Assembly: GCA_036337035.1 (NCBI GenBank)
Contig: JAYZFC010000002.1
Location: forward strand, 16,138 to 80,137
Length of the DNA stretch: 64,000 bases
Direction: 5' to 3'
DNA from: Pseudomonadota bacterium
GTDB taxonomy: Bacteria; Pseudomonadota; Gammaproteobacteria; Steroidobacterales; Rariloculaceae
Under the pieces are notes generated by a model. It did not search any database and had not been told where the DNA came from. It saw nothing but the letters and a program-made list of their open reading frames with translations. Made by a program: the position numbers and the translations under genes. Positions 2,117 through 27,720 of the stretch are shown here, in pieces. The stretch's first letter is position 1. Each line of letters begins with the position of its first letter.

Positions 2117-2635
2117 TTACTTTAGCAGATTGCCTTCATCATCAAGATCTAAGCCAGTCTTTCTTGCTTGATCAAGCACTTTAGCTGGCCAGATCACATG
2201 GCCTGCATCCGTCCCACCTACAATTGTCATCATTAACGCATATTCTTTGCCAATGTTTCTAAAACTTCTCATAACACCTGCAGGAACGGAAACAATATCG
2301 AATGCGTTTAACTCAATTCTATTCTCCTCCTCATCACCCCAAAGTATCTCCCAATTACCTGACATAGCAAAAAAAACTTCTACTGTATCGTGAGAGTGAA
2401 GTGACGCACCTTTTTCTGCATTAGCTCCTATGTAAGTAACATTAAAACCTTCTACTGCTTTAATTGCTGGAGATAAGTTAATATCTTCTGTTACTCCTGA
2501 ACCAATTACAGTGAAAACATCTCTTTCCATGCCTGGAATAAGAGAATCTACAAAGGCTTTTTGCGTTGGCTTTAAATCATCAAAACGAGCTAGACGCTCA
2601 TTCATTTGCTCAGGTGTAAAAGTCTTAGATTTCAT
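2117..2635 (-). CDS. Cupin-domain protein (no export signal)
   Basis: 172 aa. Cupin motif 1 is SLHSHDTVEVFFAMSG (HxHx3E) and the motif 2 region is VPAGVMRSFRN. Its ATG overlaps the TGA of the upstream gene (ATGA at 2632-2635). Confidence 0.7.
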   Translation of the reverse strand: MKSKTFTPEQMNERLARFDDLKPTQKAFVDSLIPGMERDVFTVIGSGVTEDINLSPAIKAVEGFNVTYIGANAEKGASLHSHDTVEVFFAMSGNWEILWGDEEENRIELNAFDIVSVPAGVMRSFRNIGKEYALMMTIVGGTDAGHVIWPAKVLDQARKTGLDLDDEGNLLK

Positions 2636-4698
2636 CTAATTACGTACTCCCATATATTAGTAGCTTGCTCAAGAATAGCAGGTAGATCAGATTCAAGAAG
2701 ATAACCCTCTTCAATCAACTCTTTTGCCTCCTGAGAAAGTAAATCAAGATAGTGATCTAAGTTATCATACCTTTCTTCTACAGAAAGGCGGGGGTCTTCA
2801 TTAGATAATCTAGTTTCCCTATCTTTTGGAAAAGGTAAAAAAGAGCCTGACATATGTGAAACTGTGTCAGTTGGTCCGTAATCAGAATTATATAGATTCC
2901 AACCCGTATATGTTGCTAAAGGAACTATATGACCAAGAGTTTTAAGGCCACCAATTTCATTACCATCCTCATCTACTTGAGGAACAAAAACAGGAAACGC
3001 ATCACTCACTTCTGGTGGCTCTTTAGTGATGACTCCATCAGTTGCAAAAAAAGGTCCATAATCTACTCGGTAAGCTTTATGAGTTTTAGTTGGAAAATTT
3101 ATATTTGGTATTTTAGGAAAATTAACCATATCTGGCTCAACAAGAGTTCCGTCTTTCAAAAGCGGATATCTACTTGGTGGTGCTGGTATATCATTTGCAA
3201 CCCAGTCATTCATCCTTATCAATAGAGCACGCATTAGCCAAGAAAAATCATTTGGATTATTTAAGTTCTGCCCATTTGTCTGTGATGGAGGAAAGTCTGA
3301 AGGCAGATGTTGAGCGCCAGACAAATGATAAACTCTTGAATAATCATCTAGCATAGGTACATCAACTAATCCATCAACTGAAGTAGTTAAAAGCGAAACA
3401 ACCCTACCCCAATATTCATAAGAAGAATTTACATTATATACTTTAGGCATAAATGCTTCTGGTAAATGAGATAACACTCCATCAGTAATTCCAGTTAAAG
3501 GATCGGTTTGCTCAATATCTGTGAATGGAAAAATATCAGTAGGATAAAAGAAATTTAAAAAGGGATGAGCATCTCTTGAAGCTTGTCCAAATCTTAAATT
3601 AAAACTCCCTCTTGCAGCTCCACCAATTTGGGCAATTACTCCATCAAGAGCTTTTCTATTAGACTCATCTTCATTAAAACCCATATAGAGATAAGTCCTT
3701 AGCGTTCTTCCAGGTTGCGACATTCCATACGCAATAATATGATCTATAGAGTTTTCTGAAAGATTTAAGTCAGCTAAGGAGTCATATTTTAGAGCAGAAG
3801 CAGTATCGCGAATTGCAGCAAGACCTAAACCAATAATTTCAGGATTCTCTGATACATATACTACTTCATAAATTAGTTTGGGTTTAAAACCTGAGGACAA
3901 ATAAATTCTATCCATATCAGGAACTACCTTGCCTTGCTCTAATCTTGCAAAGCTCCATTGATCCCTTGCGATAATTCTTCTCTCTCCTTCAACAGAATCT
4001 CTAACAGTTAAAATATTTTCTGGTGAATCAGGATCAGAAACAGAGTATGGGATATGGCCTCTATCAGCCAAAGTCCTATCAAAAACCTCTGAAGTAACAA
4101 CAAAATCACTTCTAACCAAGCCTTCAATTGTATTTTCTGGATCTATTTTAGGAATAAAAATTCTCGATCCTGCTGTTCTACTGGCTGGCACATCAAATTG
4201 CCAACCTACCCAAAATAGAGAAAAACCATTTTCCATTAAAAAACCATCGCCAAAGTCTGACTCTATCGTTGGATTAGCAGCATCCCAATATTCTCCTCCT
4301 GTATAAACAACTCCACCATCGGTTGCATCAGCATGATTAAAAAAAGTTAGCATTCGTCTGGTACCTCGATTAGCAATACCAAGGAGCGTTGTTCCATTAG
4401 ACTTATCCATGTTTTTTGGTTTTAAAAAAGTAAAATTAGCCGAAAACTCAACCATACCTTGGGCGTTTAATGGAGCATATTCGATATCAACAATTTTATG
4501 ATTAACTAGGTTGGCTGGGTCAACTTCAAAAAAAATAGTGCCAAGAAACTTTTCATATGCGCCTGTTTCACCAAACTCATAACTATCAAGAACATCCTCA
4601 TGGATTTCTATATCAAAACCAACAACTTTTGCTTCTATAGTTGTGAATAATGAAAAAAGAAAAAAGAGAAATGTAATTTTTTTGAAATCAAGTTTCAT
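2632..4698 (-). CDS. Secreted uncharacterised protein, alpha/beta-hydrolase-like (tentative); paralogue of 17088..19064
   Basis: 688 aa. Sec signal MKLDFKKITFLFFLFSLFTTIEA/K. Colinear with the 658-aa ORF at 17088..19064; shared blocks are DRGHIPYSV, SQPGRTLRTYLYMGFN vs SQSGRLLRTFLYDGFN, and RLS.EERYDNLDHYL. The Ser sits in a small-x-Ser-x-small context like a nucleophile elbow. Family name is recalled from memory only. Confidence 0.6.
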   Translation of the reverse strand: MKLDFKKITFLFFLFSLFTTIEAKVVGFDIEIHEDVLDSYEFGETGAYEKFLGTIFFEVDPANLVNHKIVDIEYAPLNAQGMVEFSANFTFLKPKNMDKSNGTTLLGIANRGTRRMLTFFNHADATDGGVVYTGGEYWDAANPTIESDFGDGFLMENGFSLFWVGWQFDVPASRTAGSRIFIPKIDPENTIEGLVRSDFVVTSEVFDRTLADRGHIPYSVSDPDSPENILTVRDSVEGERRIIARDQWSFARLEQGKVVPDMDRIYLSSGFKPKLIYEVVYVSENPEIIGLGLAAIRDTASALKYDSLADLNLSENSIDHIIAYGMSQPGRTLRTYLYMGFNEDESNRKALDGVIAQIGGAARGSFNLRFGQASRDAHPFLNFFYPTDIFPFTDIEQTDPLTGITDGVLSHLPEAFMPKVYNVNSSYEYWGRVVSLLTTSVDGLVDVPMLDDYSRVYHLSGAQHLPSDFPPSQTNGQNLNNPNDFSWLMRALLIRMNDWVANDIPAPPSRYPLLKDGTLVEPDMVNFPKIPNINFPTKTHKAYRVDYGPFFATDGVITKEPPEVSDAFPVFVPQVDEDGNEIGGLKTLGHIVPLATYTGWNLYNSDYGPTDTVSHMSGSFLPFPKDRETRLSNEDPRLSVEERYDNLDHYLDLLSQEAKELIEEGYLLESDLPAILEQATNIWEYVIR

Positions 4699-4715: not shown

Positions 4716-5834
4716 CTAAATATCTCTACTTAATTTCAATAATCTAATTAAATTACCGCCAAGAATAGCTTCTTTTTCTGAATTATTAAGGAATTGAGAA
4801 TTTAAGATAAGATGCATAGTATCTGGCCAACCTAAAGGCATATCTGTTCCATAAACTACCTGACTTGGTCCCATCTCTGCTACTAGATGACGAAGACCTT
4901 CATCTGAAAAAACCATGGAATCAGCAAAAATTTGTGTCCTCAGGTACTCTCTCGGAGGCTTCTGATTCTTACAGTCATCAGCTTGAATTGGATCATTACC
5001 TATAAATTCCCCAGAAGAATTTCTAGCAGCACCTCCAAATGCATCGCAAGCTACATCTAGCCTTCCAAAATACGAGGGCAAGTAACCTCCTCCATGAGCT
5101 CCACAAATCTTAAGTCCTGGGAAACGGTCAAATGTTCCATCTAAGATAAACCTAGATAGAAGAAAACCCGTTTCAAGAGGATTGCCAACAATATTGCCTA
5201 AATCTCCACTAAAATCTAAGCCACCTTCTTTAACAATATTAACCGCATTCGCTGGATGCATAAAGACTGGCACATCAAGTTCTTCAGCTTTTGCCCAAAA
5301 TGGATCATACTTTTCTGATGCAGGAACTTCTCCCTCAACATGGCCACCAATAGAAGCACCCTTAAAGCCTAAAGTTTTCACAGCATACTCTAGTTGTTCA
5401 GCTGCCAGCTCTGGAAATTGAAGTGCTACAGAAGTCAACGCAACAAATCGATCAGGATAACGCTCTACCCAACGAGCAAATCCTTCATCTTGAACACGAA
5501 TAATATCTCTAGCTAAATCGTAATCTGCTCTATACCACCAGTATTGATTAGCACTAATAACTGAAACATCTATTCCCCACTCATTCATCAAATCAAGTCT
5601 TGATGGCTCCAATAATCTTGGACCTCCAATTCTTCTCTCAAGAGGAGTGCCGTTAATTACATTCTCAACTTCTTTAATTGAAGCATGAGCATGGATATCT
5701 ACAGTTTTAACTCTTTTCCCTGCTATATATATTTCTTTTCTTGTTTGAGAAAAAACAGAAGGAGAGGAAAATGAACCAATAGCACCTACTCCCAAAGCAT
5801 GAAGAAAATGTCGCCTATTTTTAATAATGCTCAT
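4716..5834 (-). CDS. Tat-exported amidohydrolase_2 family metal-dependent hydrolase/decarboxylase-like enzyme
   Basis: 372 aa. Twin-arginine leader KNRRHFLHALGVGAIGSFSSPSVFSQ. Blocks VDIHAHAS (HxH), FMHPAN, AHGGGYLPSY and VYGTDMP. Paralogue of 10144..11208. Confidence 0.75.
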   Translation of the reverse strand: MSIIKNRRHFLHALGVGAIGSFSSPSVFSQTRKEIYIAGKRVKTVDIHAHASIKEVENVINGTPLERRIGGPRLLEPSRLDLMNEWGIDVSVISANQYWWYRADYDLARDIIRVQDEGFARWVERYPDRFVALTSVALQFPELAAEQLEYAVKTLGFKGASIGGHVEGEVPASEKYDPFWAKAEELDVPVFMHPANAVNIVKEGGLDFSGDLGNIVGNPLETGFLLSRFILDGTFDRFPGLKICGAHGGGYLPSYFGRLDVACDAFGGAARNSSGEFIGNDPIQADDCKNQKPPREYLRTQIFADSMVFSDEGLRHLVAEMGPSQVVYGTDMPLGWPDTMHLILNSQFLNNSEKEAILGGNLIRLLKLSRDI

Positions 5835-5837
5835 TAT

Positions 5838-7103
5838 TTATTCTCCTGAAACAATTGGTGGTCCCATAAGAAAATCAGGGTTGGCCCCTTCTCTAGGAGT
5901 AAATTTTTGAACGCCACCTTTATTATCAACTTGGGCTAAATAAACATTACCCTCCTGATCAACACTCATCCCATGAACACCAGCAATGCCTCCAGGATAA
6001 TTACCATAGGATCCCCAAGAATATAGAAAGTTCCCGTCTAGATCATATTTTAAAATCTTATGTGTATTGCGATCAGCAGCCCAAAGATAACCATCCGCGG
6101 TAATATTAAATAAATGAAGATTTCCTACTGGGCCAACATTCCATTCAAAAAGATACTCACCATCTTCAGTAAAGACCTGAATTCTCTGATTAGCCCTATC
6201 ATTTACAAATACTCGATTTGTTTCTGGATCAACCGCAACACCATGGACGTTATTCATATAGCCAGGTCTTGTTTCATTAGGAGGGTTACCAGCTTGACCC
6301 CAAGAAGTTAAATAATTACCATCTTTATCAAACTTAACAATCCTAGTCCCGTTATATCCATCCGCTACTACAAAACTGCCATCAGGAAACCAATCCATGA
6401 AAGCAGGTCTATTAAAATGTGTTTCATCATCACCTGGTTGTCCGTAAGTTCCTATTGTCTGAAGGAGGGTTTTACCATCATTAGTAAATTTATGAATAAC
6501 ATGCTTATGATCATCAACTATCCAAACATTCTTTTCTTCGTCATATGGACTAATAGCTACAAAATGAGGCCTTTGAAGCATAGAATCCCACTGATTCCAA
6601 GCTTCAATTACATTACCTTCTCTATCAAAAACTAAAATACAATATTCCCATTTAGAGTCGACACCAAGTCTGCCTCCACCTTTGATCCAATTAATTACGC
6701 CATCTTCAGCTATATTGCCTGTCCCACCACCACTCGGTAAGCTTGCTCTTGTTGCATTTCTCCATACATTTGTAGGAGGAAATTGCATACTAGGTCCCAC
6801 CTCAGGCAGTCTTCTAGTTCCTGGATTAGAAACATCTGGCAGCAGACCTCTTTGAAGATAAAAAACTCTATCGGGGCTCTGTGCAAAAACACTTTGTCCC
6901 GCTCCAAATGTCCAGCCCTCTGCTCCAGGCAAACCAGAAATGTCTTTTGGCCAATCTATAACAACATCATAAGGGCCAAATGCATCCTGCCCTCCTATTT
7001 CACCAGGAATAGCAGCATAGCTTTGAGAAGCATCCTGTGAATACAAATAATTACTAATAAATAAAAAGCTAATAAAAAATAATATTTTTTTAACCTTGAA
7101 CAT
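5838..7103 (-). CDS. Secreted NHL-repeat beta-propeller protein
   Basis: 421 aa. Signal peptide ending NYLYS/Q. Repeated NHL-like blocks: YNGTRIVKFDKDGNYL, HGVAVDPETNRVFVNDRANQRIQVF, HGMSVDQEGNVYLAQ. Confidence 0.65.
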   Translation of the reverse strand: MFKVKKILFFISFLFISNYLYSQDASQSYAAIPGEIGGQDAFGPYDVVIDWPKDISGLPGAEGWTFGAGQSVFAQSPDRVFYLQRGLLPDVSNPGTRRLPEVGPSMQFPPTNVWRNATRASLPSGGGTGNIAEDGVINWIKGGGRLGVDSKWEYCILVFDREGNVIEAWNQWDSMLQRPHFVAISPYDEEKNVWIVDDHKHVIHKFTNDGKTLLQTIGTYGQPGDDETHFNRPAFMDWFPDGSFVVADGYNGTRIVKFDKDGNYLTSWGQAGNPPNETRPGYMNNVHGVAVDPETNRVFVNDRANQRIQVFTEDGEYLFEWNVGPVGNLHLFNITADGYLWAADRNTHKILKYDLDGNFLYSWGSYGNYPGGIAGVHGMSVDQEGNVYLAQVDNKGGVQKFTPREGANPDFLMGPPIVSGE

Positions 7104-7146: not shown

Positions 7147-8154
7147 TTACTCAAACCCTGCAAACTCAGGATCACAGTTATATTCTTGAATTGAGTATTC
7201 AGGAGTATAGTCAAGTTGCATTGTACCACTCCATGACTCAGCTAAATATTCTGGATCCTCCACAAGAATATCTACATTCATTCTATTACCTTCTTTGTTT
7301 AAATAAAAACGCTCTATAGTATGTTTTTTCGAACCGTTAGGTACACCCCTATCAAATGAAGAACGGTGATCTGCAAATAATACTGTATCAACAACCAATA
7401 CATCATCTTCCCAAAAACCAATCGAGTGTCCCTGATTAGTTCTTTCACCAGCTTCAGGATGACTTCTTCCATCCATATAAATGATTCTTTGGTTATCAAA
7501 AAATTCATTCTTAATGATTATCCTATCGTCCAATATATCAAATTCAGTTAGGTAGATAATCATGCCTCTTAACCAAGTCGGTGTAGGAGGAGGAACACAC
7601 TGAGCAATTGGGCTATGTAATCTATAATCATAGGAGCTCTTTGCTAAGGCAGCTTTGTCAGTCAATGAAGCTTCTGACATCGCCTTAGAGAACTCAATTA
7701 TTGTTGAACCCCTTCCTTTCCAGACCCCTTCAAAACTATCTGTAGTAGAAGTACCAATATAATCGCTCTCATCCTGAATGTATACTGAACCATCAGCTGT
7801 CTGAATATTGATCAACATAACATCATGATCTTGGGGGTCTCTATTTGGATAAGCTGTAGCTTGGACCAAATCACCTTCCTTAAGTAGATCTCTTGACCAG
7901 CCGCTTCTAGTCATAATCATGGTGCTCCCAATCTCTAACGCCCATTCAGCAATATCTCCATTACTATCAGGAGCCTCAACATAAATAGTCACATGAGGAT
8001 TTCTCCAAACATAATTTGTCACTACTCCCTGTAATGTTATTGTCTTAGTCTGATCATAACTAGCATCACTATGATGAGCATTAGATGAAACAACAAAGAA
8101 AAAGCTCAAACAGATAAAAAAACTAAAGAATCTAGTCATAATAACCTCAGCCAA
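7147..8154 (-). CDS. Secreted two-domain protein of unknown function (DUF6152-like N-terminus plus C-x-P-P / DGR-HP domain)
   Basis: 335 aa. Signal ending VVSSNA/HH. N-terminal HHSDASYD...WRNPHVTIYVE block (DUF6152-like, from memory). The C-terminal half (AQCVPPPTP, IIYMDGRSHPE, VDILVEDPEYL) is homologous to 23962..24750. Confidence 0.5.
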   Translation of the reverse strand: MAEVIMTRFFSFFICLSFFFVVSSNAHHSDASYDQTKTITLQGVVTNYVWRNPHVTIYVEAPDSNGDIAEWALEIGSTMIMTRSGWSRDLLKEGDLVQATAYPNRDPQDHDVMLINIQTADGSVYIQDESDYIGTSTTDSFEGVWKGRGSTIIEFSKAMSEASLTDKAALAKSSYDYRLHSPIAQCVPPPTPTWLRGMIIYLTEFDILDDRIIIKNEFFDNQRIIYMDGRSHPEAGERTNQGHSIGFWEDDVLVVDTVLFADHRSSFDRGVPNGSKKHTIERFYLNKEGNRMNVDILVEDPEYLAESWSGTMQLDYTPEYSIQEYNCDPEFAGFE

Positions 8155-13706: not shown

Positions 13707-15131
13707 ATGAAAAGTTATAAAAATATTTTATCAATTATTTTGTCAGCTCTATTTTTAATTCCCCTGCTTGCTAAAAGCGGTCCTCAAGATGGAGCATTCC
13801 TTAGAACTGCTCAAATACTTGATGAGCCGAGAGGCTATTGTCTAGATATAGCTGGGTATGGTGAAACCATTCGAACTGAAGCAGCTTTAAGGTTTCATAC
13901 ATGTAAATATAAAGAACTAAATACAGATCAATATTTTGGACTTGGTTCATCAGATCAACAAATCTACGTACCTGCATATGACATCTGCCTTCATGCAACT
14001 AGTATCTCAGAAGGCTCTGAGTTATTTACTCAACCTTGTTCATCGATAGATAATCAAATATGGGATATATTTCCAAATGGTTTTATTAGTCCTGCATCTA
14101 ATCATAATTTATGCATAACAGCAGGAGCTGAATCTCGTAATGTTGGAACTTCTGGTGGTGACTGGTTAATTGATAATTATAGAGCTCGATCTGCTACTCT
14201 TGAGATCTGTGAGAATAACTCTGATTTCCAAGAGCTGCGTTGGGGGTATGATGCTGAACAGGAAAGAAGTTTTACAAACACAATTAGGTTAGGGGTGCCT
14301 GATGATATACAAGATTTAATTAATGAAGGGCCGCCCATGAATCGACCATTAAATGATGTGCTCCAAGGCCTTGAAAGAACCTATACTCCAGACGAATTAG
14401 AGATTACAGAAAATATTGCTTATGGGCCTAAAGAAAGAAATTTACTCAATGTTTATAGAGATTTATATCGAACAAATCGAGAGCCAGTTCCAGTCGTTAT
14501 CTATTTTCATGGTGGTGGCTTTGCAAGAGGTGGATTTGAAACTGCTCCAAATGTTCCTGCATATTTTGCAAGCCTAGGTATGGTCGGAGTCAATGCTACC
14601 TATAGTCTTATACCTGAAGCTAGATGGCCTGATGGGGCTGTTGATGTTGGAGCAGCAGTAAGTTGGGTTAGAGAAAATATTTCTGAATATGGTGGGGATC
14701 CAGAGCAAATTTATGTTATAGGATCATCTGCTGGAGCTCATAATGTCGCAACATATGTGTTTAGACCAGACGTGCTTCCAATAGGTACTCCTGAAGTAGC
14801 TGGTGCAATCCTAATATCTGGAATTTATTCATCTCCCCCGGGAGATGAATTACTATATTTTAGTGATACTATTGGTGATGAAGCTGCTATTATAAATAAT
14901 ATCAAAAGAACTAGCATTCCAACACTCATTGCTATAGCTGATAATGATATCCCTAGGGCAACGAATGACTTCACAAGCATAATTCACGATCTTAATATTA
15001 ATCACGGACATCTGCCTTCATTAATTCTAGTACAAGGACATAATCATACATCCTATACAAGAACGATAGGAACCGCTGATAAATACATGAGTGCTGAAAT
15101 ACTTGATTTTATTCTTAATAATAAAAATTAA
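13707..15131 (+). CDS. Secreted ricin-type lectin domain plus alpha/beta-hydrolase (esterase/lipase, HGGG type)
   Basis: 474 aa with a signal peptide. The N-terminal half has repeated C-containing trefoil-like blocks (YCLDIAG, ICLHATS, LCITAGA) and a Q-x-W (NQIWDI). The C-terminal half has the oxyanion motif YFHGGGF and nucleophile elbow GSSAGAH. Confidence 0.7.
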   Translation: MKSYKNILSIILSALFLIPLLAKSGPQDGAFLRTAQILDEPRGYCLDIAGYGETIRTEAALRFHTCKYKELNTDQYFGLGSSDQQIYVPAYDICLHATSISEGSELFTQPCSSIDNQIWDIFPNGFISPASNHNLCITAGAESRNVGTSGGDWLIDNYRARSATLEICENNSDFQELRWGYDAEQERSFTNTIRLGVPDDIQDLINEGPPMNRPLNDVLQGLERTYTPDELEITENIAYGPKERNLLNVYRDLYRTNREPVPVVIYFHGGGFARGGFETAPNVPAYFASLGMVGVNATYSLIPEARWPDGAVDVGAAVSWVRENISEYGGDPEQIYVIGSSAGAHNVATYVFRPDVLPIGTPEVAGAILISGIYSSPPGDELLYFSDTIGDEAAIINNIKRTSIPTLIAIADNDIPRATNDFTSIIHDLNINHGHLPSLILVQGHNHTSYTRTIGTADKYMSAEILDFILNNKN

Positions 15132-17087: not shown

Positions 17088-19064
17088 TTATCTCCAATAT
17101 TTTTCAGCAGAAATCATCAAATAATCTAAATCTTCTTCAAGAATAAACCTTTTATCAATTAACTGTTCGCTATAATCTTTAAAAAGTCTCAAGTAGTGAT
17201 CCAAGTTATCGTACCTTTCTTCCAATGATAGTCTGGCATCTCCATTGTCTAAACGCTCAACTCTAGTTCTACTAAACGGAAGAACAAAACCTAAGCCTCC
17301 TTTTGGGCTATTTGGATACCATCCAGTGAAAGTTCCTATAGGTACAGAGATAAAGGGTGATTTTAAACCTCCTAATTCATTACCATCTATATCTACCTGA
17401 GGAATAAGAAAAGGCAAGGTTGATAATATTTGTGGCGGCTCAATTGTAATTACACCATTATGATTAAATGAAGTGCCATAATTAAGCTGATATCCTCTAC
17501 TAATATCTACTGGAACACTTAAATTTTTTAAAATTGGAAAATCTAATTCTTCTAATCTTACTAAGGTATTATCTAGTAACTTAGGATAGACAGAGCTAGG
17601 AGGCGAAGTATCTTTCTGAACCCAATCTGTCATAGCTATTAGCAAGCCTCTAAGAAACCATCGATAATTATTTGGATTACCTCGATTTATAGCGTGATAA
17701 TTTATAGAATCAAAACTTGATGGTACATGCTGCGTACCAGAAAAATGATATATCCTTGAATTTTTTAGATGATTAATATCTTTATCGCCATTAACGTTAG
17801 TATGTATTAAAGCAGCAGGACGCCTCCAATACTCAGTAGATGAATTAGTAAAAAATATTTTAGGGGAACCAGACTTACTATCATCGATAAGAGAGTCCTC
17901 CTTACCATCTAATGGATTAATCTGCTTAATATCAGAAAATGGAAAATGCGTACCTGGATAAAGATAACTTACATCTGTTGCTCTTGATGGCTGAGCGAAT
18001 CTGTGATTAAAGCTACCTCTAGAGCTCGCTCCTAAGTGAACCATCAAACCATCAAAAACTAATCTCCCTTTAATATCTAAATTAAAACCATCGTAAAGAA
18101 AAGTTCTTAATAACCTTCCACTTTGAGAAGAGCCAAAAGATATAGCCTGACTTACAGATGCTGGAAATATTTCATCAGTTTTATTATCATACTTTATGAA
18201 AGAAACTAGATCCCTAATTGAGGCTAAACCTAATCCTGCTACTGATGAATTTCCAGAATAATAAACTACCTCATAAACTCTATTAGGAGAAAATCCATCT
18301 TCTTTATAAATGTAATTTGGGTCACTAATAAAAATATTATCTTCAAGGTATCCAAATTTCCAAAGAGATTTATCGATAGCTACTCTTTCTCCATCTACAG
18401 GTTCTCTCTCTGTAAGAATATTTCTTTCATCATTAATATCTAAAACTGAATAAGGTATATGGCCCCTATCCCCCAATGAGTGAGAATAGCTCAATTCTTG
18501 AACCTGAAAGTCACTCCTAACTATTCCTTCAACAATGCCATTATCACTAGAAAGATTAGGTACATATGCCTTCAATAATATGTCTGACTTAGGTACATCA
18601 AATTGCCATCCCAAGAATAGAAGCGTATATCCACGATTTATAAGAAAATCTATACCAGTAGAATTATCATTCGGAACATCAAAATATGCTGATAAAGTTT
18701 TTTTTCCACGGTTTAAAATATCTACTAATAAAATACCATTTGATTTAGAGCTATCTTTTGGCCTCAATAAATGAAAATCTGATGAAAAAGTAACCGTATT
18801 TTTCTCTATTAAATTTATAGAAGCACGATCAATATCAACAATTAAGCTATTTTCTGATAGAGTAGGATCTAACTCAAAAAAAACCTTTCCTTCTATTAGC
18901 TCATAATTTATTTTTGATATGCCTTCATCCAAAACAGTATCAGTATAATCATATCTTTTATCTATACTAAAGCTAGCAACTTCGGCAAATATTTGTAATG
19001 AGAAAAATAGAGTAATAAAAAATAGACATACCAGTTTAAAAAAAATCATATTTTTATAATTCAC
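17088..19064 (-). CDS. Secreted uncharacterised protein, alpha/beta-hydrolase-like (tentative); paralogue of 2632..4698
   Basis: 658 aa with a signal peptide ending LQIFA/E. GTG 19064 overlaps the TGA of the upstream sulfatase (GTGA); the alternative ATG at 19049 is only 11 nt downstream of that stop. Shared blocks with 2632..4698 are listed there. Confidence 0.6.
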   Translation of the reverse strand: MNYKNMIFFKLVCLFFITLFFSLQIFAEVASFSIDKRYDYTDTVLDEGISKINYELIEGKVFFELDPTLSENSLIVDIDRASINLIEKNTVTFSSDFHLLRPKDSSKSNGILLVDILNRGKKTLSAYFDVPNDNSTGIDFLINRGYTLLFLGWQFDVPKSDILLKAYVPNLSSDNGIVEGIVRSDFQVQELSYSHSLGDRGHIPYSVLDINDERNILTEREPVDGERVAIDKSLWKFGYLEDNIFISDPNYIYKEDGFSPNRVYEVVYYSGNSSVAGLGLASIRDLVSFIKYDNKTDEIFPASVSQAISFGSSQSGRLLRTFLYDGFNLDIKGRLVFDGLMVHLGASSRGSFNHRFAQPSRATDVSYLYPGTHFPFSDIKQINPLDGKEDSLIDDSKSGSPKIFFTNSSTEYWRRPAALIHTNVNGDKDINHLKNSRIYHFSGTQHVPSSFDSINYHAINRGNPNNYRWFLRGLLIAMTDWVQKDTSPPSSVYPKLLDNTLVRLEELDFPILKNLSVPVDISRGYQLNYGTSFNHNGVITIEPPQILSTLPFLIPQVDIDGNELGGLKSPFISVPIGTFTGWYPNSPKGGLGFVLPFSRTRVERLDNGDARLSLEERYDNLDHYLRLFKDYSEQLIDKRFILEEDLDYLMISAEKYWR

Positions 19065-20503
19065 TCGCTGTTTCTAAGTGTTTCGATCTGTTGTTTTAGA
19101 GCTAAATAATTTTCTGATTGCTCTTCAGTCAGATCTCCTTCCAATAAGTTGTTATATTCATAAGGATCTGCTTGTAAATCATAAAAATGTTCTTCTAAAT
19201 TATTTCTTAATAATTTATAGCGGTGGTTTCGCATGGCGTAATCTGCTGTTGGTATGCCAATAAAGCCCCCTGGAAACATATCAGCATAAACCCACTCTCG
19301 TTGTGAAGGAGTATTTAAATCTTTTAAGATCGGTAAAAAACTCACAGAGTCTGTTGTCACTTCTTCAGGTACAGCTTCTTCAGGATCAATACCTGCCATT
19401 TCCATAATGGTGGCAAATAAATCAGTAGAATTAACAAGTGCGTCAGAGACACCATTTACAATCCCCGGTCCAGCAACAATCAAGGGCACATTAACACCGC
19501 CTTGATACATAGTCTGTTTAGCGTAATAAGGACGAAATGGTGATGAAACTATTCTTAAGTCTGTCCCATTATCACCCATAAAAATAACATAGGTATTGGC
19601 ACGAACTTCTGCAGATAAAGAATCTAAGATTCGACCGATTTGTGTATCCATAGCTTCAAGCATGGATTGGAAATAATCTGGGTTATCATAGCTAGGTACT
19701 GAATTTCTTCCAAGATGAGAATAATCAGACTGCCAGTGTTCTTCTGGAGAAAGATGCAAAGGGGTATGAGGTAAATTAAGTGCAAACCACAAAAACCAAG
19801 GATTGTCCTCCTGCTCGGCAATCCAATTAATAGCATCGTTTGTTTTATCCACAGGTGCATAACCAACAGTACCAATTACCTCACCATTGACTACCTTATT
19901 CCAAGAAAAATAGTTTTCTGGCGACCCAAAAGGCAAAGTAACAGCATGATCAAAGCCAACCAGATTGGGATGATCAATTCCTCCATTTTTATCATCTCCT
20001 AAGTGCCATTTACCAATTGCTGCAGTTTTGTAATTTAGATGATCATCAAATGCTTTAGGTAAAGTATATTCATCTAAGTCTAGACCTGCACGGGGAATGC
20101 TACTAAGGCTGTCTATTGCTTCTATACCTGAAAGACCTGGTCCTGGCTGATTACGCATACCTGGAGGAGATGGTACTGCCCATGCAGGTAAAGGAGGTGG
20201 ATCATCAAGCTGGAGCCCACCACCAGGACCACCAACAGGACGCCCTATTCCTGTTCTAAAGCCATATCTTCCAGTTAATAAAGTAGCTCTGGTTGGAGAG
20301 CAAACTGGTTGTGTCCAAAAATTATTAAAACGTATGCCTTCATTTGCTAATTGATCAAGGGTTGCTGTTGTTGCTGTGTCATCGCTCAAACCATAAGAGG
20401 CAAGAGTCTCGTTACCCATATCGTCACCGATGATCAATAAGATGTTCGGAGCTGAGTAGCAAAGGTTACTAAAAAAGAAAAGGATACAAAATTTTAATTT
20501 CAT
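19061..20503 (-). CDS. Secreted type I sulfatase, tandem copy A
   Basis: 480 aa. Signal MKLKFCILFFFSNLCYS/A. Metal site IIGDDMG. Formylglycine motif CSPTRATLLTGR. GKWHLG and FMGDNG blocks. Confidence 0.9.
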   Translation of the reverse strand: MKLKFCILFFFSNLCYSAPNILLIIGDDMGNETLASYGLSDDTATTATLDQLANEGIRFNNFWTQPVCSPTRATLLTGRYGFRTGIGRPVGGPGGGLQLDDPPPLPAWAVPSPPGMRNQPGPGLSGIEAIDSLSSIPRAGLDLDEYTLPKAFDDHLNYKTAAIGKWHLGDDKNGGIDHPNLVGFDHAVTLPFGSPENYFSWNKVVNGEVIGTVGYAPVDKTNDAINWIAEQEDNPWFLWFALNLPHTPLHLSPEEHWQSDYSHLGRNSVPSYDNPDYFQSMLEAMDTQIGRILDSLSAEVRANTYVIFMGDNGTDLRIVSSPFRPYYAKQTMYQGGVNVPLIVAGPGIVNGVSDALVNSTDLFATIMEMAGIDPEEAVPEEVTTDSVSFLPILKDLNTPSQREWVYADMFPGGFIGIPTADYAMRNHRYKLLRNNLEEHFYDLQADPYEYNNLLEGDLTEEQSENYLALKQQIETLRNSE

Positions 20504-20509
20504 AATAAT

Positions 20510-21943
20510 TTACTCGCTGTTTCTAAGTGTTTCGATCTGTTGTTTTAGGGCTAAGTAATTTTCTGATTGCTCTTCAGTCAGATCTCCTTCCAATAAGTTA
20601 TTATGCTCATAAGGGTCTGCTTGTAGATCATAAAAATTTTCTGCGGGTGTAGCTCTAAAATCTCTTAATAATTTATAGCGGTGATTACGCATTGCATATT
20701 CTGAAAATGGAATACCCTCAAAACCATAAAATCTATCAGCATAAACCCACTCTCGTTGTGAAGGAGCATTTAAATCTTTTAAGATCGGTAAAAAGCTCAC
20801 AGAGTCTGTTGTCACATCTTCAGGTACAGCTTCTTCAGGATCAATGCCTGCCATTTCCATAATGGTGGCAAATAAATCAGTAGAATTAACAAGTGCATCA
20901 GAGACACCATTTACAACCCCCGGTCCAGTGACAATCAAGGGCACATTAATACCGCCTTGAAAAACATATCCCTTAGTATTACCAGAATGAAATGGTGATG
21001 AAGCCATTCTTGTATCTGTTCCATTATCACTCATAAAAATAACATAGGTATTGGCACGAACTTCTGCAGATAAAGAATCTAATAACCGACCGATTTGTGT
21101 ATCCATAGCTTCAAGCATGGATTGGAAATAATCTGGGTTGTCATAGCTAGGCACTGAATTTCTTCCAAGATGGGAATAATCAGACTGCCAGTGTTCTTCT
21201 GGAGAAAAATGCAAAGGAGCATGAGGCAAATTAAGTGCAAACCACAAAAACCAAGGATTGTCCTCCTGCTCGGCAATCCAATTAATAGCATCGTTTGTTT
21301 TATCCACAGGTGCATAACCAACAGTACCGATTAGCTCACCATTGACTACCTTATGCCAAGAAAAATAATTTCCTGGACCACCGTTAGGCAAAGTAGCAGC
21401 ATGATCAAAGCCAACCAGATTGGGATGATCAATTCCTCCATTTTTATCATCTCCTAAGTGCCATTTACCAATTGCTGCAGTTTTGTAATTTAGATGATCA
21501 TCAAATGCTTTAGGTAAAGTATATTCATCCAAACTAAGGCCTAAACCAGGCACTCTTCTTAACCTCTCTATTTCTTCTATGCCTGTGCTCGGATTTGGTA
21601 TGAATCCCCTGCCTGGAGATGGTGTCGCCCATGCAGGTAATGGCAGTCGGTCTTCACTGATAGAAACAGAATTACGAGGGGTCCCTAAGCCTGTTCTAAA
21701 GCCATATCTTCCAGTTAATAAAGTAGCTCTGGTTGGAGAGCAAACTGGTTGTGTCCAAAAATTATTAAAACGTATGCCTTCATTTGCTAATTGATCAAGC
21801 GTTGCTGTTGTTGCTGTGTCATCGCTCAAACCATAAGAGGCAAGAGTCTCGTTACCCATATCATCACCGATGATTAATAAGATGTTCGGAGCTGAGTAGC
21901 AAAGGTTACTAAAAAAGAAAAGGATAAAAAATTTTAATTTCAT
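20510..21943 (-). CDS. Secreted type I sulfatase, tandem copy B
   Basis: 477 aa. Same signal peptide, CSPTRATLLTGR, GKWHLG and FMSDNG. TAA stop at 20510-20512, 6 nt upstream of copy A. Confidence 0.9.
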   Translation of the reverse strand: MKLKFFILFFFSNLCYSAPNILLIIGDDMGNETLASYGLSDDTATTATLDQLANEGIRFNNFWTQPVCSPTRATLLTGRYGFRTGLGTPRNSVSISEDRLPLPAWATPSPGRGFIPNPSTGIEEIERLRRVPGLGLSLDEYTLPKAFDDHLNYKTAAIGKWHLGDDKNGGIDHPNLVGFDHAATLPNGGPGNYFSWHKVVNGELIGTVGYAPVDKTNDAINWIAEQEDNPWFLWFALNLPHAPLHFSPEEHWQSDYSHLGRNSVPSYDNPDYFQSMLEAMDTQIGRLLDSLSAEVRANTYVIFMSDNGTDTRMASSPFHSGNTKGYVFQGGINVPLIVTGPGVVNGVSDALVNSTDLFATIMEMAGIDPEEAVPEDVTTDSVSFLPILKDLNAPSQREWVYADRFYGFEGIPFSEYAMRNHRYKLLRDFRATPAENFYDLQADPYEHNNLLEGDLTEEQSENYLALKQQIETLRNSE

Positions 21944-21950
21944 TAATAAT

Positions 21951-23420
21951 TTACTCGCTGTTTCTAAGTGTTTCGATCTGTTGTTTTAGAGCTAAATAAT
22001 TTTCTGATTGTTCTTCAGTTAGATCTCCTTCCAATAAGTTATTATTTTCATAAGGGTCTGCTTGTAGATCATAAAAATTTTCTTCTAGCTGATGTCTTAA
22101 TAATTTATAGCGGTGATTACGCATTGCATAATCTGCTGTTGGTATGCCTTCAAAAGAGCCAAAAAATGCATCAGCATAAACCCAATCTCGTTGTGAAGGA
22201 GTATTTAAATCTTTTAAGATCGGTAAAAAGCTCACAGAGTCTGTTGTCACATCTTCAGGTACAACTTCTTCAGGATCAATGCCTGCCATTTCCATAATGG
22301 TGGCAAATAAATCAGTAGAATTAACAAGTGCATTAGCAGTACCAATAGGTATATTAGGTCCTGTTACTATTAAAGGTACATTAACACCACCTTGAAAAAC
22401 AGATCCCTTAGATTTATCAGCAGAAAATGGTGGTGAAATTGATTGCCCAGTTGTTCCATTATCACCCATAAAAATAACATAGGTATTGGCACGAACTTCT
22501 GCAGATAAAGAATCTAAGATTCGGCCGATTTGTGTATCCATAGCTTCAAGCATGGATTTAAAATTGTCAGGAGAGTTTGATTGCCAATTTTCTTCTGGAG
22601 AAATATGCATTGGAGTATGAACAAGATTAAAAGCTAACCACAAAAACCAAGGGTTATCTTCCTGCTCAGCAATCCAATTAATAGCATCGTTTGTTTTATC
22701 CACGGGTGCATAACCAACGGTACCAGTTACTTCACCATTGACTACTTTGTTCCAAGAAAAATAATTTTCTGGGCCTCCCGCAGGCAAAGTAGCAGCATAA
22801 TCAAAACCAACCATGTTGGGATGATGGGCTGCTCCATTATTTATTCCACCTAAGTGCCATTTACCAATTGCTGCAGTTTTGTAATTTAGATGATTATCAA
22901 ATGCTTTAGGTAAGGTATATTCATCTAAGTCTAGACCTGGACGAGGAATAGGTCTCACCCTATCTATTTCTTCTATACCTGTAAGTGGGGCTCCCATAGC
23001 CCTATAACGCTGACCTCCTGAAGGAGTAAGTGGGGGTCCCATAGCCCTACCTCCTGAAGGAGTAAGTGGGGGTCCCATAGCCATACCTCCTGAAGGAGAT
23101 AGTGTTGCCCATGCAGGTAAAGGAGGTGGATCATCAAGCTCAAACCCTCCAGCAGGACGCCCTATTCCTGTTCTAAAGCCATATCTTCCAGTTAAAAGCG
23201 TAGCTCTGGTTGGAGAACAAACTGGCTGTGACCAAAAATTATTAAAGCGTATGCCTTCATTTGCTAATTGATCAAGCGTTGCTGTTGTTGCTGTGTCATC
23301 GCTCAAACCATAAGAGGCAAGAGTATCGTTACCCATATCATCACCGATGATTAATAAGATGTTCGGAGCTGAGTAGCAAAGGTTACTAAAAAAGAAAAGG
23401 ATAAAAAATTTTAATTTCAT
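21951..23420 (-). CDS. Secreted type I sulfatase, tandem copy C (carries internal 12-aa repeat insertion)
   Basis: 489 aa. Same signal peptide, CSPTRATLLTGR, GKWHLG and FMGDNG. Contains GGMAMGPPLTPSGGRAMGPPLTPSGGQRYRAMGAPLTG. Confidence 0.9.
   Translation of the reverse strand: MKLKFFILFFFSNLCYSAPNILLIIGDDMGNDTLASYGLSDDTATTATLDQLANEGIRFNNFWSQPVCSPTRATLLTGRYGFRTGIGRPAGGFELDDPPPLPAWATLSPSGGMAMGPPLTPSGGRAMGPPLTPSGGQRYRAMGAPLTGIEEIDRVRPIPRPGLDLDEYTLPKAFDNHLNYKTAAIGKWHLGGINNGAAHHPNMVGFDYAATLPAGGPENYFSWNKVVNGEVTGTVGYAPVDKTNDAINWIAEQEDNPWFLWLAFNLVHTPMHISPEENWQSNSPDNFKSMLEAMDTQIGRILDSLSAEVRANTYVIFMGDNGTTGQSISPPFSADKSKGSVFQGGVNVPLIVTGPNIPIGTANALVNSTDLFATIMEMAGIDPEEVVPEDVTTDSVSFLPILKDLNTPSQRDWVYADAFFGSFEGIPTADYAMRNHRYKLLRHQLEENFYDLQADPYENNNLLEGDLTEEQSENYLALKQQIETLRNSE
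22978..23100 (-). repeat. 36-nt in-frame tandem repeat inside sulfatase copy C
   Basis: Units 23014-23049 and 23050-23085 (cctcctgaaggagtaagtgggggtcccatagccCta / ...ccAta) differ at 1 of 36 positions. Degenerate partial copies flank them on both sides. The unit encodes GGxAMGPPLTPS. Confidence 0.85.
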
Positions 23421-23961: not shown

Positions 23962-24750
23962 ATGAAATTTTCTAGTGTATTTTTTTTAATACTGATTTTT
24001 TTTACAAATGCAGCCTATGCTCAGTATGGTACAGGCACGCCAACTGATGTTCAGCCTCGTGTGCTTGGTGACGCACCGATCAGAGATCTAAGTGGTGTTT
24101 GGGTAAGAACACCAAGAAGATTGTCACCAGAAAATGCCTTTATAAGTGGATCTACTTTCACACCTGAACCTCCTAAATTAACTGAATATGGTCAAGAGTT
24201 ACTTGACGCTTCAAAAAACTCTAATGCTGGAGATTTTGCATTAGTGGATACAAACGATCCAGTTTTAACTAAATGCTATCCGCCTGGCTTACCAAGAGTT
24301 TATCTACACCCATATCCTTTTCAGTTTGTTAACACGGATAAAGAAATAATTATCTTATATGAATATGATCATACTGTAAGAAGGGTGTATATTGATGGTA
24401 GACCTAATCTTGATGACCCTCCCCCATTATGGAATGGAAATTCTGTTGGCCAGTGGACAGATGATTATACTTTTGTTATCACTACAGTTGGTATAGATGA
24501 AAGAGCTTGGGTTGATAGATCAGGTATTCAGCATAGCGATCAATTAAAAATTACTGAAACATTTACAATAGTTGATAATCTTAATTTAACATTAGATATT
24601 CTAATGGAAGATCCTCTTGTTTTCGAAGAGCCGTGGGAAGCAGAAAGATGGTACATTACCCGAACTCCAGAACATTGGGAGATTAGCGAAATAAGTTGTG
24701 CCGGCGATTATCTTAATCACGCTGCATTTGAAGCTGTAATCACAAACTAA
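23962..24750 (+). CDS. Secreted protein of unknown function (C-x-P-P-G-x-P-R / DGR domain; paralogous to C-terminal half of 7147..8154)
   Basis: 262 aa. Signal ending TNAAYA/Q. Blocks LTKCYPPGLPRVY, VRRVYIDGRPN and LDILMEDPLVFEEPW parallel AQCVPPPTP, RIIYMDGRSHP and VDILVEDPEYLAESW. Confidence 0.5.
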   Translation: MKFSSVFFLILIFFTNAAYAQYGTGTPTDVQPRVLGDAPIRDLSGVWVRTPRRLSPENAFISGSTFTPEPPKLTEYGQELLDASKNSNAGDFALVDTNDPVLTKCYPPGLPRVYLHPYPFQFVNTDKEIIILYEYDHTVRRVYIDGRPNLDDPPPLWNGNSVGQWTDDYTFVITTVGIDERAWVDRSGIQHSDQLKITETFTIVDNLNLTLDILMEDPLVFEEPWEAERWYITRTPEHWEISEISCAGDYLNHAAFEAVITN

Positions 24751-24760
24751 TATAGCTTTC

Positions 24761-26074
24761 TTAAATTTCTCCCATAAGATAATTTGGGAGAAATGTAACT
24801 ATCTCAGGAAAAATTGATAGCAAAATAATAGTCAATACCATTATCAATGCATAAGGTATAGCTCCAAGAAGAACTTTAGTTAGATCAACATCAGGTGCTA
24901 TTCCATTAATAACATATAAATTTAAACCAACAGGTGGAGTAATAAGCCCAATTTCCATATTTATAGTCAAAATAACTGCAAACCAATAAGGATCAAAACC
25001 TGCTTGAGTGATAAGAGGTAATAATATAGGCGCTGTCATAACTATCACAGCAACGGGAGGCAAGAAAAAGCCAGCTAAAAGTAGAAAAATATTAACAGCA
25101 GCTAATAAAAACCATCTATTAAGCTCTAAGAGAGCTATCCACTCAGCGATAGATTGTGTCACAAATAAACTAGATAATGTATAGCTAAAAAGACTAGCTG
25201 CTGCAATGATCATCATAATCATAATGCTTTCGCGAGAGCTTTCTTTTAGTATATGCCAAATCTTCAAAGGATTTCTTACTTTATAAATAACAGCAATGAG
25301 GATAAAACACATCATCGCACCCACTCCTGCAGCTTCAGATGGGGTTGCAACACCGCCATATAGCACAAATAGAATCGCCAAGATCAAAAGTAAAAATGGT
25401 GCGACCTTTGGTATTAGTTCTAATTTCTCTTTAAATGAAAATTTTTTTTTGTTAAAGGCTGCTAAGTTATTATTTTTTGATCCATAAAAAATAGCCCAAA
25501 AAATAAAAAATAAAGTCAAAAGCAATCCTGGAATAATCCCTGATATAAATAAACGACCTATAGAAGTACCAGTTGAAATACCATAAACGATCATGGTAAC
25601 ACTTGGTGGAATTAAAATGCCTAGGGTACCTCCTGCTGCAATAGATCCAGTGGCAAGCTCATCTGAATAGCCTCTTTTTCTCATTTCAGGAATACCCATT
25701 TTCCCGATAGCTGCACAAGTAGCAGGAGAAGATCCGCTTAAGGCTGCAAAAATTGAGCAAGCAAAAATATTAGAAATAGCTAACCCACTTGGTACACGAT
25801 AGAGCCATCTTTCTAAGGCTCCATAAAGATCACTTGATGCTGGAGATGAGGCAATAGCACCACCCATTGCAATAAACATAGGAATAGATATAAGTGTAAA
25901 ATCTGATATGCCAGAAAAAAATAACTCACCTAAAAAATTTAGCGAGTAGAACCCTTCAAAAAACAACAAAAAGCTTATTGCTATAAAAATAAGACCAAAA
26001 GCAACAGGAATACCTGTTGCCAGAATAATAATAGTTGATAATGCAATTAAGCTTCCTATTTCTAAAGGGCTCAT
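24761..26074 (-). CDS. dctM: TRAP transporter large permease subunit
   Basis: 437 aa, about 12 TM segments, typical DctM blocks (IPMFIAMGG, GSSPATCAAIGKMGIPEM). Overlaps dctQ by 4 nt. Confidence 0.9.
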   Translation of the reverse strand: MSPLEIGSLIALSTIIILATGIPVAFGLIFIAISFLLFFEGFYSLNFLGELFFSGISDFTLISIPMFIAMGGAIASSPASSDLYGALERWLYRVPSGLAISNIFACSIFAALSGSSPATCAAIGKMGIPEMRKRGYSDELATGSIAAGGTLGILIPPSVTMIVYGISTGTSIGRLFISGIIPGLLLTLFFIFWAIFYGSKNNNLAAFNKKKFSFKEKLELIPKVAPFLLLILAILFVLYGGVATPSEAAGVGAMMCFILIAVIYKVRNPLKIWHILKESSRESIMIMMIIAAASLFSYTLSSLFVTQSIAEWIALLELNRWFLLAAVNIFLLLAGFFLPPVAVIVMTAPILLPLITQAGFDPYWFAVILTINMEIGLITPPVGLNLYVINGIAPDVDLTKVLLGAIPYALIMVLTIILLSIFPEIVTFLPNYLMGEI

Positions 26075-26598
26075 AATATGCCATCTTTAATAGAAGATTG
26101 CTTAAAAAGCTCTAGCTTATTAGTATAAATAGAATAAATATCAGCTAATAATTGTAAGGATAACAAACTAAAGCCTATAGCTAGAGGTAAAGTGGGTATC
26201 CATAAAGGAGGTGCCCATATTGAAGGGGTTCTCCAATCATTAATCCATGCCTCATAAAAATAAAACCAACTTGCCCAAGCCAAAATAACACATCCAAATA
26301 AAGATAAAAAAGATGAAAATATAGCTAGGTATTTTCTTGCGTTAGAATTTAAAAAATGTGGAACTAGATCAACATTTACATGACCTCGAGTTAAGAGTAC
26401 GTATGGACTACCAATTAAGGTTGCAGATACTACTGCAAAGATAACAAACTCATATTGCCAAATTGTAGATTGGCCTAAAATATATCTAATAAATACCATA
26501 TAGCAAACAACTACACAGGCGATTGCCAAAAGAAAGGCTGCTATTGCTCCACAAAGCCTAGATAAAAAATGAATAAAAGAAATAATCTTATCAATCAT
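26071..26598 (-). CDS. dctQ: TRAP transporter small permease subunit
   Basis: 175 aa, four TM segments, positioned between dctP and dctM. Confidence 0.8.
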   Translation of the reverse strand: MIDKIISFIHFLSRLCGAIAAFLLAIACVVVCYMVFIRYILGQSTIWQYEFVIFAVVSATLIGSPYVLLTRGHVNVDLVPHFLNSNARKYLAIFSSFLSLFGCVILAWASWFYFYEAWINDWRTPSIWAPPLWIPTLPLAIGFSLLSLQLLADIYSIYTNKLELFKQSSIKDGIL

Positions 26599-26606
26599 TC
26601 AAATAC

Positions 26607-27599: not shown

Positions 27600-27613
27600 T
27601 TTTTTTTCTTCCC

Positions 27614-27641
27614 TCTGTTTATTTTTAAATAATCTGTTTAT
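27614..27641. promoter_or_regulatory. Exact 9-nt direct repeat TCTGTTTAT x2 in divergent promoter region (candidate operator)
   Basis: TCTGTTTAT occurs at 27614-27622 and 27633-27641 (19 nt start to start), between dctP and the (GM)n gene. TATAAT at 27671-27676 and GGAG at 27709-27712 precede ATG 27721. Confidence 0.25.
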
Positions 27642-27720
27642 ACTAGAAACTAACTTTGATATTACCTTTGTATAATTATAACAAATATATTTAATATTAT
27701 TCGAAATTGGAGCAATAATT

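Follow-up and report, generated by a model that had tools for sequence, protein, structure and literature searches.

The 64,000-nucleotide stretch of DNA analyzed here, which we call the window, comes from a Pseudomonadota bacterium of the Rariloculaceae (contig JAYZFC010000002.1 of GenBank assembly GCA_036337035.1, positions 16,138 to 80,137 of the forward strand). It carries two paralogous genes, referred to as copy A and copy B, for proteins of the Pfam family PF20091 (Abhydrolase_10). With moderate confidence, we read both genes as encoding exported, likely periplasmic serine hydrolases of the alpha/beta fold that belong to this family. The two coding sequences and the features at their ends are as follows, with positions counted from the first letter of the window.

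17088..19049, minus strand: copy A coding sequence, 653 amino acids (aa) from the ATG at 19049; PF20091 Abhydrolase_10 member
19064, minus strand: GTG, alternative start of copy A, giving 658 aa (open reading frame [ORF] 17088..19064)
19061..19064, minus strand: GTGA overlap, in which the candidate GTG start of copy A shares bases with the TGA stop of the upstream sulfatase gene
18984..19049, minus strand: predicted Sec signal peptide of copy A, residues 1 to 22, MIFFKLVCLFFITLFFSLQIFA, with cleavage before EV; read by eye
2632..4698, minus strand: copy B coding sequence, 688 aa; PF20091 member
2632..2635, minus strand: ATGA overlap, in which the stop of copy B shares bases with the start of the cupin gene 2117..2635

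The original prediction, made from the sequence alone, held that a family of exported proteins of about 670 aa is present twice in the window. We confirmed that the two genes are paralogues: their proteins show 41% identity across 669 residues (E = 1e-165), far more than chance would give, and no third copy lies within the 64-kb window. The motif blocks quoted as shared between them, DRGHIPYSV, SQxGR..LRT.LY.GFN, and RLS.EERYDNLDHYL, are all present in both copies. Reading the sequence also bore out the gene junctions that had been described. At the junction ...agcgaGTGAatt..., the GTG of copy A shares bases with the TGA that ends the sulfatase gene 19061..20503, the ATG at 19049 follows 11 nucleotides (nt) after that stop, and the ATGA overlap of copy B with the cupin gene is as reported. 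The start calls for copy A differ, with the ATG (653 aa) used in NCBI entry MEE2683548.1 and the GTG (658 aa) used in a Tara gene call; copy A is 100% identical to database protein P0001, which is MEE2683548.1. From the 4-nt overlaps or the 11-nt gap, we infer that both genes may be translationally coupled to their neighbors. A scan of 16 to 24 kb for promoters and terminators gave the same result as shuffled sequence. By inspection, both N termini resemble Sec signals (MIFFKLVCLFFITLFFSLQIFA before EV in copy A and MKLDFKKITFLFFLFSLFTTIEA before KV in copy B), each with a hydrophobic core followed by a putative cleavage site, between IFA and EV in copy A and between IEA and KV in copy B. Neither N terminus contains a lipobox Cys on inspection.

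Both copies match PF20091 ("Alpha/beta hydrolase domain"), with 106.5 bits for copy A and 103.3 bits for copy B (E = 2e-30), scores that are 4 to 5 times the gathering cutoff of 23 bits. The Pfam alpha/beta-hydrolase family that the original prediction had mentioned exists, and both copies match it. The profile aligns at positions of about 128 to 428 only, leaving roughly the N-terminal 250 residues of each window protein outside the match. No other Pfam family matched either copy at E <= 1, including PF00135, the peptidase families, and the BphD-type hydrolase families, and no NCBIfam model matched either one. Sequence searches of the PDB, whether they started from one protein or from a profile of 44 sequences, produced only a chance match (E = 1.4). 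Over 2,300 homologues of copy A and over 3,400 of copy B received scores, and those listed all carry PF20091 and are named only "hypothetical protein" or "alpha/beta hydrolase domain-containing protein." The latter is also the label that NCBI already gives to both window sequences. The homologues span 92 to 100% of the query, so the relation to PF20091 members is full length and colinear. A profile search of 1.84 billion cluster representatives returned 11,036 clusters (50% identity) at E <= 1e-3 and 2,178 at E <= 1e-30. Matches in genomes came mainly from metagenome-assembled genomes of Acidobacteriota (Bryobacterales and Vicinamibacterales), Longimicrobiales, Gammaproteobacteria, Rhodospirillaceae, and Verrucomicrobia; PF20091 is common in Acidobacteriota, Gemmatimonadota, and marine Gammaproteobacteria. 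A full-text literature search by family accession, family name, InterPro number, and elbow motif found no paper on PF20091. PF20091 is thus a known and annotated family without a characterized member, and the two copies are further members of it.

In other organisms, PF20091 is found fused to Exo_endo_phos (twice), to Peptidase_S51, to an SGL propeller, and to PEGA/CarboxypepD_reg domains, and in one gene call it is fused to a sodium:solute symporter. The proteins that bear these fusions are P0171, P0190, P0184, P0213, P0209, and P0202, and some of them may be gene-calling artifacts.

We modeled copy A with AlphaFold2 from a 44-sequence alignment (mean predicted local distance difference test score [pLDDT], 84.1; predicted template modeling score [pTM], 0.88), with residues numbered from the ATG, and counted conservation in 121 diverse full-length cluster representatives. 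In the model, a beta-rich insertion (residues 150 to 270, approximately) and a C-terminal extension (about 460 to 653) surround an alpha/beta core. The residues predicted to form the active site are encoded at the following positions; the codons of the elbow, of His441, and of the Asn113-Arg114-Gly115 loop were checked.

18117..18134, minus strand: nucleophile elbow Gly306-Ser-Ser308-Gln-Ser-Gly311, from the model and conservation; Ser308 codon at 18126..18128
17832..17834, minus strand: Glu406, predicted as the likeliest catalytic acid, three residues past strand 397-403
17727..17729, minus strand: His441, predicted catalytic His, in a loop (G-T-Q-H) after strand 431-436
18705..18713, minus strand: Asn113-Arg114-Gly115 loop, candidate oxyanion hole, after strand 106-111

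A strand (301-307) leads into Ser308 and is followed by a helix (309-319), and both Ser308 and Gly306 are kept in 120 of the 121 relatives and Gln309 in 118. This agrees with the earlier suggestion that the Ser of S-Q-x-G-R is a candidate nucleophile. His441 is kept in 119/121 relatives, and position 406 is acidic in every one of them (115 Glu and 6 Asp). The residues follow each other as Ser308, Glu406, and His441, with the His past the last core strand, which is the canonical nucleophile-acid-histidine order. We also considered Asp373, in the conserved F-P-F-S-D block, as the catalytic acid and rejected it because only 56/121 relatives keep it. The equivalent residues in copy B, for which we checked the codons, are Ser327 (3718..3720), Glu428 (3415..3417), and His464 (3307..3309). 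The copy A elbow, G-S-S-Q-S-G, fits the Sm-x-Ser-x-Sm-Sm pattern, and that of copy B, G-M-S-Q-P-G, deviates from it at the fifth position. In enzymes of this fold, the oxyanion hole usually sits where a loop follows the strand equivalent to 106-111. Asn113-Arg114-Gly115, kept in 118 to 120 of the 121 relatives and located in the part of the protein outside the PF20091 match, is the likely oxyanion-hole loop, a role that its position suggests. A Ser-His-Asp triad had been proposed as the thing to look for in a model, and a model with no triad would have counted against the original prediction. His441 and Glu406 lie in canonical order, so that the model is in keeping with a predicted triad, with Glu as its likeliest acid, and does not give that contrary result. 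Given that the Ser, the His, and the acid are conserved in 98 to 100% of relatives and that the elbow is present in the model, both proteins are most likely active Ser-His-Glu hydrolases of the periplasm, and their activity is probably that of esterases (carboxylic ester hydrolases).

The nearest solved structures are consistent with a hydrolase. When the copy A model was compared with the PDB by Foldseek, the matches were weak (best E = 2e-4; template modeling [TM] scores of 0.2 to 0.4), and because of this the substrate class cannot be read from the structures. The top-ranked matches were nearly all alpha/beta hydrolases, with esterases and lipases first and brefeldin A esterase among them. 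The best match was Candida rugosa lipase 1gz7 (E = 2e-4; probability, 0.98), and O. piceae sterol esterase 4be9, which like the lipase belongs to PF00135, was also found. Carboxylesterases of the C. rugosa type have in common with the window proteins that they are large alpha/beta hydrolases with insertions. The triad of fungal lipase/cholinesterase-type enzymes is Ser-Glu-His, and its Glu comes soon after strand beta7, a site with which the position proposed for Glu406 agrees. However, identity to the PF00135 enzymes is about 10%, the TM scores are 0.20 to 0.24, and the elbow motif and the insertions differ. Membership of PF00135 (type-B carboxylesterase/lipase) was rejected, as there was no match by hidden Markov model (HMM) and no PDB match by sequence. 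The second-best match was LipA of Xanthomonas oryzae (3h2g; E = 3e-4; TMt, 0.31), a secreted cell-wall-degrading esterase with a ligand-binding module. The LipA elbow is of the G-x-S-Q-G type. LipA differs from the window proteins in size (387 residues versus about 650) and is 10% identical, with no relation at the sequence level. Weak matches (E = 1e-3 to 7e-3) were also found to carbohydrate esterases of families CE15 (glucuronoyl esterase 6gry and 6hsw) and CE7 (acetyl xylan esterase 7xmj and 1vlq). CE15 enzymes have a conserved Arg beside the nucleophile, to which Arg312 after the elbow of the window proteins, present in 109/121 relatives, may be compared. Yet the CE15 motif G-C-S-R-x-G is missing from the window proteins, which have G-x-S-Q-x-G-R instead, the TM scores are 0.2 to 0.4, and the window genes have no carbohydrate-active genes adjacent to them.

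The two copies differ in how they relate to the rest of the family. Each is closer to proteins of other organisms (41 to 48% identity for copy A, 44 to 51% for copy B) than copy A is to copy B (42%). Orthologues of copy B at 55 to 69% identity occur in many metagenomes, whereas the best match of copy A beyond its own species reaches 47 to 48%. Therefore, copy B is the mainstream orthologue in the usual family context. Copy A would be an old, faster-evolving, divergent paralogue that ended up behind sulfatases in this lineage only.

Three sulfatase genes on the minus strand precede copy A, which ends their run, and the surrounding region contains the following.

19061-20503, 20510-21943, and 21951-23420, minus strand: three tandem Cys-type sulfatase genes upstream of copy A (Pfam Sulfatase and SGSH_C)
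19061-23420 (minus strand), 28115-29776 (plus strand), 29822-31522 (minus strand), and 24761-27749 (minus strand): sulfatase island of five sulfatases plus a TRAP DctPQM transporter
23962..24750, plus strand: 262-aa homologue of the C-terminal domain of DUF6152-family proteins, some 5 kb away from copy A

The two tandem sulfatases that were compared, sulfatase copies A and B, show 84% identity, and the CSPTR formylglycine motif and near-identical signal peptides occur in all three. No formylglycine-generating enzyme was found among the annotated ORFs, which cover roughly 1 to 56.5 kb of the window, nor did the window's annotated ORFs include a glycoside hydrolase gene or any other polysaccharide gene. 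The arrangement of copy A is repeated only in contigs of the same species (94 to 100% identity); among the contigs and loci examined, its sulfatase context was not seen outside that species. Between the two PF20091 copies lies a gene (13707-15131, plus strand) for an exported esterase with a ricin-B lectin domain and a hydrolase domain of the Abhydrolase_3/BD-FAE type.

Copy B lies among genes for exported proteins that follow each other in the order glyoxalase/VOC, DUF6152, NHL propeller, Amidohydro_2, copy B, and cupin. Its main neighbors are listed here.

7147..8139, minus strand: DUF6152 protein (Pfam PF19649)
5838..7103, minus strand: NHL-repeat beta-propeller (Pfam NHL/SGL)
4716..5834, minus strand: Amidohydro_2 enzyme directly upstream of copy B, with a Tat-like signal (RRHFLHALG)
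28-2094, plus strand: TonB-dependent receptor, divergent from the copy B operon

Copy A, copy B, and the neighbors in this operon, with the exception of the cupin, have signal-peptide-like N termini. The operon's glyoxalase/VOC protein has weak similarity to catechol 2,3-dioxygenase. Directly past its signal peptide, the TonB receptor has an (Asp-His)x8 repeat, which suggests metal binding. A second Amidohydro_2 paralogue is encoded at 10144-11208 on the plus strand, with a Tat-like RREFI (versus RRHFL at 4716-5834), and both paralogues are about 60% identical to the product of 14009-15070 in homologue locus L095, a gene that lies about 2 kb from the copy B orthologue there.

Elsewhere in the window, selenium genes occupy 36944-39172 (plus strand) and 42059-44982 (minus strand), with SelA and SelB side by side, and the region also encodes a 742-aa protein that combines a pyridine-nucleotide-disulfide oxidoreductase domain with AIRS/AIRS_C (SelD-like). 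A 1061-aa protein encoded at 33758-36943 (plus strand) joins an MFS transporter domain to a spermine/spermidine synthase domain.

We then counted neighbors in 88 independent homologue loci, up to 10 kb on each side. Of these, 80 came from GTDB species representatives and the others from contigs of closer relatives; the set leaves out contigs that belong to the species of the window itself. All ORFs of these loci were searched with profiles or sequences of the window proteins, by clustering of all ORFs and by HMM searches. The loci with each neighbor within 10 kb were as follows.

Sulfatase: 3/88 loci
Window-type TonB receptor: 5/88 loci
Amidohydro_2: 1/88 loci
DctM (TRAP transporter): 5/88 loci
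NHL propeller: 10/88 loci
DUF6152-family protein: 13/88 loci, often with 2 to 6 copies each
DUF6152 or NHL: 17/88 loci

An earlier scan of 84 loci had found a glyoxalase neighbor in none and a cupin in one. Pfam tables added two further TonB receptors and about 10 acidobacterial OMP_b-brl_4 receptors, which are abundant in those genomes. Thus, the recurrent partners of PF20091 are DUF6152-family proteins and NHL/SGL propellers, not sulfatases. These are counts within the 88 loci, so that the enrichment of DUF6152 and NHL is a qualitative one. Such neighbors are concentrated in the closest relatives (L002-L005, L086, L088, L089, L092, and L094), and a JGI contig repeats the order DUF6152, NHL, Abhydrolase_10 and also encodes a tannase, a lactonase, and an IclR regulator close by. 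The cassette of DUF6152, NHL, and Abhydrolase_10 is a recurrent context, not a described system, and the copy B operon has both partners. The original prediction had taken linkage to sulfatases as a clue to function, and the rarity of sulfatases and of window-type TonB receptors near homologues counts against this. The sulfatase link is peculiar to this organism or lineage and is not a trait of the family. In L094, a sulfatase and a TRAP transporter lie beside a copy B orthologue of 66% identity; we rejected this sulfatase as an orthologue of the window sulfatases, to which it is only 22 to 24% identical.

A conserved 164-aa exported protein with no Pfam match is encoded upstream of the PF20091 gene, and divergently from it, in four loci (L086 9407-9901, L088 9407-9901, L092 2441-2935, and L003 9401-9886), and in L086, L088, and L092 it is followed by an NHL/SGL propeller. 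The window contains no homologue of it.

We compared DUF6152 proteins from the window (7147-8139), alignment A2, and loci L002-L005, L086, L089, and L094. All have His-His-Ser immediately past the predicted point of signal-peptide cleavage and an N-P-H motif, both invariant, along with a pair of conserved Cys residues. The DUF6152 model (pLDDT, 89.6) has a weak likeness to an OB fold followed by an FABP/CRABP (calycin)-like barrel. The N-terminal His-His raised the idea of a copper oxidase like the lytic polysaccharide monooxygenases (LPMOs), which we rejected since the model resembles OB/FABP barrels, not LPMOs. DUF6152 proteins may be ligand-binding proteins of the periplasm, and a metal site at their N terminus is possible. 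A literature search returned nothing relevant on DUF6152. The 262-aa protein near copy A has no Pfam or NCBIfam match; tblastn with L094 proteins found it at E = 1e-22 (with a 278-aa protein) and 2e-13. This homology implies that the DUF6152 C-terminal domain also exists on its own, outside the Pfam model, and that even copy A has a member of a partner family nearby. The NHL protein resembles lactonase-type six-bladed propellers, with ScyF below the cutoff. The propeller of P0213, the protein in which PF20091 is fused to SGL, is weakly similar to the neighboring NHL propellers (E = 5e-4 to 0.01), which makes a fusion with their own family a weakly supported reading of P0213. Taken together, the partners hint at small hydrophobic, aromatic, or lactone/ester substrates in the periplasm, without singling out one substrate.

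We propose that in copy A the acid, with Glu406 the likeliest candidate, would orient His441, which would activate Ser308 at the strand-turn-helix elbow (G-S-S-Q-S-G). Ser308 would then attack the carbonyl of an ester or, less likely, of an amide, with the Asn113-Arg114-Gly115 loop as the likely oxyanion hole. The insertions at about 150 to 270 and the extension at about 460 to 653 would probably form a substrate pocket specific to the family. Copy B has the context typical of the family, a cassette of exported proteins (DUF6152, NHL propeller, and Amidohydro_2), and in this lineage only, copy A has come to close a tandem sulfatase operon. What the analysis shows is the family membership, the fold, and the conservation; the roles in catalysis, Glu406 as the acid, the preference for esters, and the location in the periplasm are predictions drawn from them.

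Several observations weigh against reading the two proteins as serine hydrolases that probably cleave esters. We found no characterized member of PF20091, no paper on it, and no solved structure. The structural matches are weak (E >= 2e-4; TM, 0.2 to 0.4) and include peptidases of the prolyl-oligopeptidase type, and fusions to Peptidase_S51 exist among PF20091 proteins. The triad is predicted from residue order in the model and from conservation among the relatives. Other acids could be proposed, namely, Asp424 (at least 97% conserved) and Asp333 (98% acidic). Finally, the fifth position of the copy B elbow is Pro, which is unusual for a nucleophile elbow.

For copy A, we weighed whether it is a dedicated partner of the three sulfatases that acts on their sulfated substrate, taking off an acyl or ester group either ahead of desulfation or after it. 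Examples of such a substrate would be a sulfated glycan that carries acetyl groups, a phenolic ester that is sulfated, or a sterol or lipid sulfate ester. Copy A and the last sulfatase share a strand and either overlap by 4 nt or stand 11 nt apart, the region is an island of five sulfatases and a TRAP transporter, and this synteny is kept in relatives of 94 to 100% identity. The L094 locus of a copy B orthologue also pairs a sulfatase with a TRAP transporter. However, a sulfatase lies within 10 kb in only 3 of the 88 loci, that of L094 is too distant from the window sulfatases (22 to 24% identity), no glycoside hydrolase or polysaccharide gene appears among the window's annotated ORFs, and the arrangement was seen only in one species-level lineage. 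We therefore consider this role unlikely.

The second alternative, that the two proteins are serine peptidases or amidases like those of families S9, S15, and S33 and trim periplasmic peptides, seems to us about equally doubtful. Because Peptidase_S51 fusions exist (P0184), peptidase activity stays in consideration. The weak Foldseek matches include prolyl oligopeptidase and oligopeptidase B, the multidomain size of about 650 aa is comparable to that of S9 and S15 enzymes, and genes for Peptidase_S15 and M24 lie near the orthologue in L095. Against this, lipases and carbohydrate esterases rank best in the structural comparison, where the peptidase matches have probabilities of 0.4 to 0.8 and TM scores of 0.15 to 0.18. 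There is no peptidase Pfam match at E <= 1, and the neighbors that recur are not peptide transporters but lactonase-like propellers and ligand-binding barrels.

It is more improbable still that copy B is a C-C bond hydrolase or lactonase of an aromatic ring-cleavage route, working with the VOC/glyoxalase-type dioxygenase, Amidohydro_2, and the cupin. The operon does contain these three genes, the first with its weak similarity to catechol 2,3-dioxygenase, and DUF6152 genes elsewhere have genes for Tannase, Lactonase, and LigAB in their vicinity. Yet glyoxalase, cupin, and Amidohydro_2 do not recur as neighbors (0, 1, and 1 of 84 to 88 loci), neither copy is similar to BphD-type hydrolase families, and the operon proteins are exported, as judged by their signal-like N termini, whereas known meta-cleavage pathways are cytoplasmic. 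That the two are noncatalytic binding proteins retaining the hydrolase fold, as some alpha/beta-fold proteins in general do, has nothing specific in its favor and can be set aside almost entirely, since the Ser, the His, and the acid are kept in 98 to 100% of the 121 relatives and in both window copies.

Serine hydrolases of PF20091 with probable esterase activity are therefore the reading that we carry forward. A wider idea, which we put forward tentatively and regard as doubtful at present, is that an undescribed, widespread periplasmic module is made up of PF20091 hydrolases, DUF6152-family proteins, and NHL/SGL propellers. It would capture and hydrolyze hydrophobic or aromatic esters or lactones, with copy A recruited in this genome for sulfated versions of these. 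Marine Gammaproteobacteria and soil Acidobacteria would use such a module on dissolved organic matter. The window itself adds no new kind of system. If the three partners do form such a module, that would modestly improve our picture of organic-matter processing by oligotrophic bacteria in the sea and in soil. PF20091 comprises about 11,000 clusters at 50% identity, yet none of its members has a known substrate. For characterizing the family, the present analysis points to Ser308, Glu406, His441, and the N-R-G loop as residues of interest and to DUF6152 and NHL/SGL proteins as partners.

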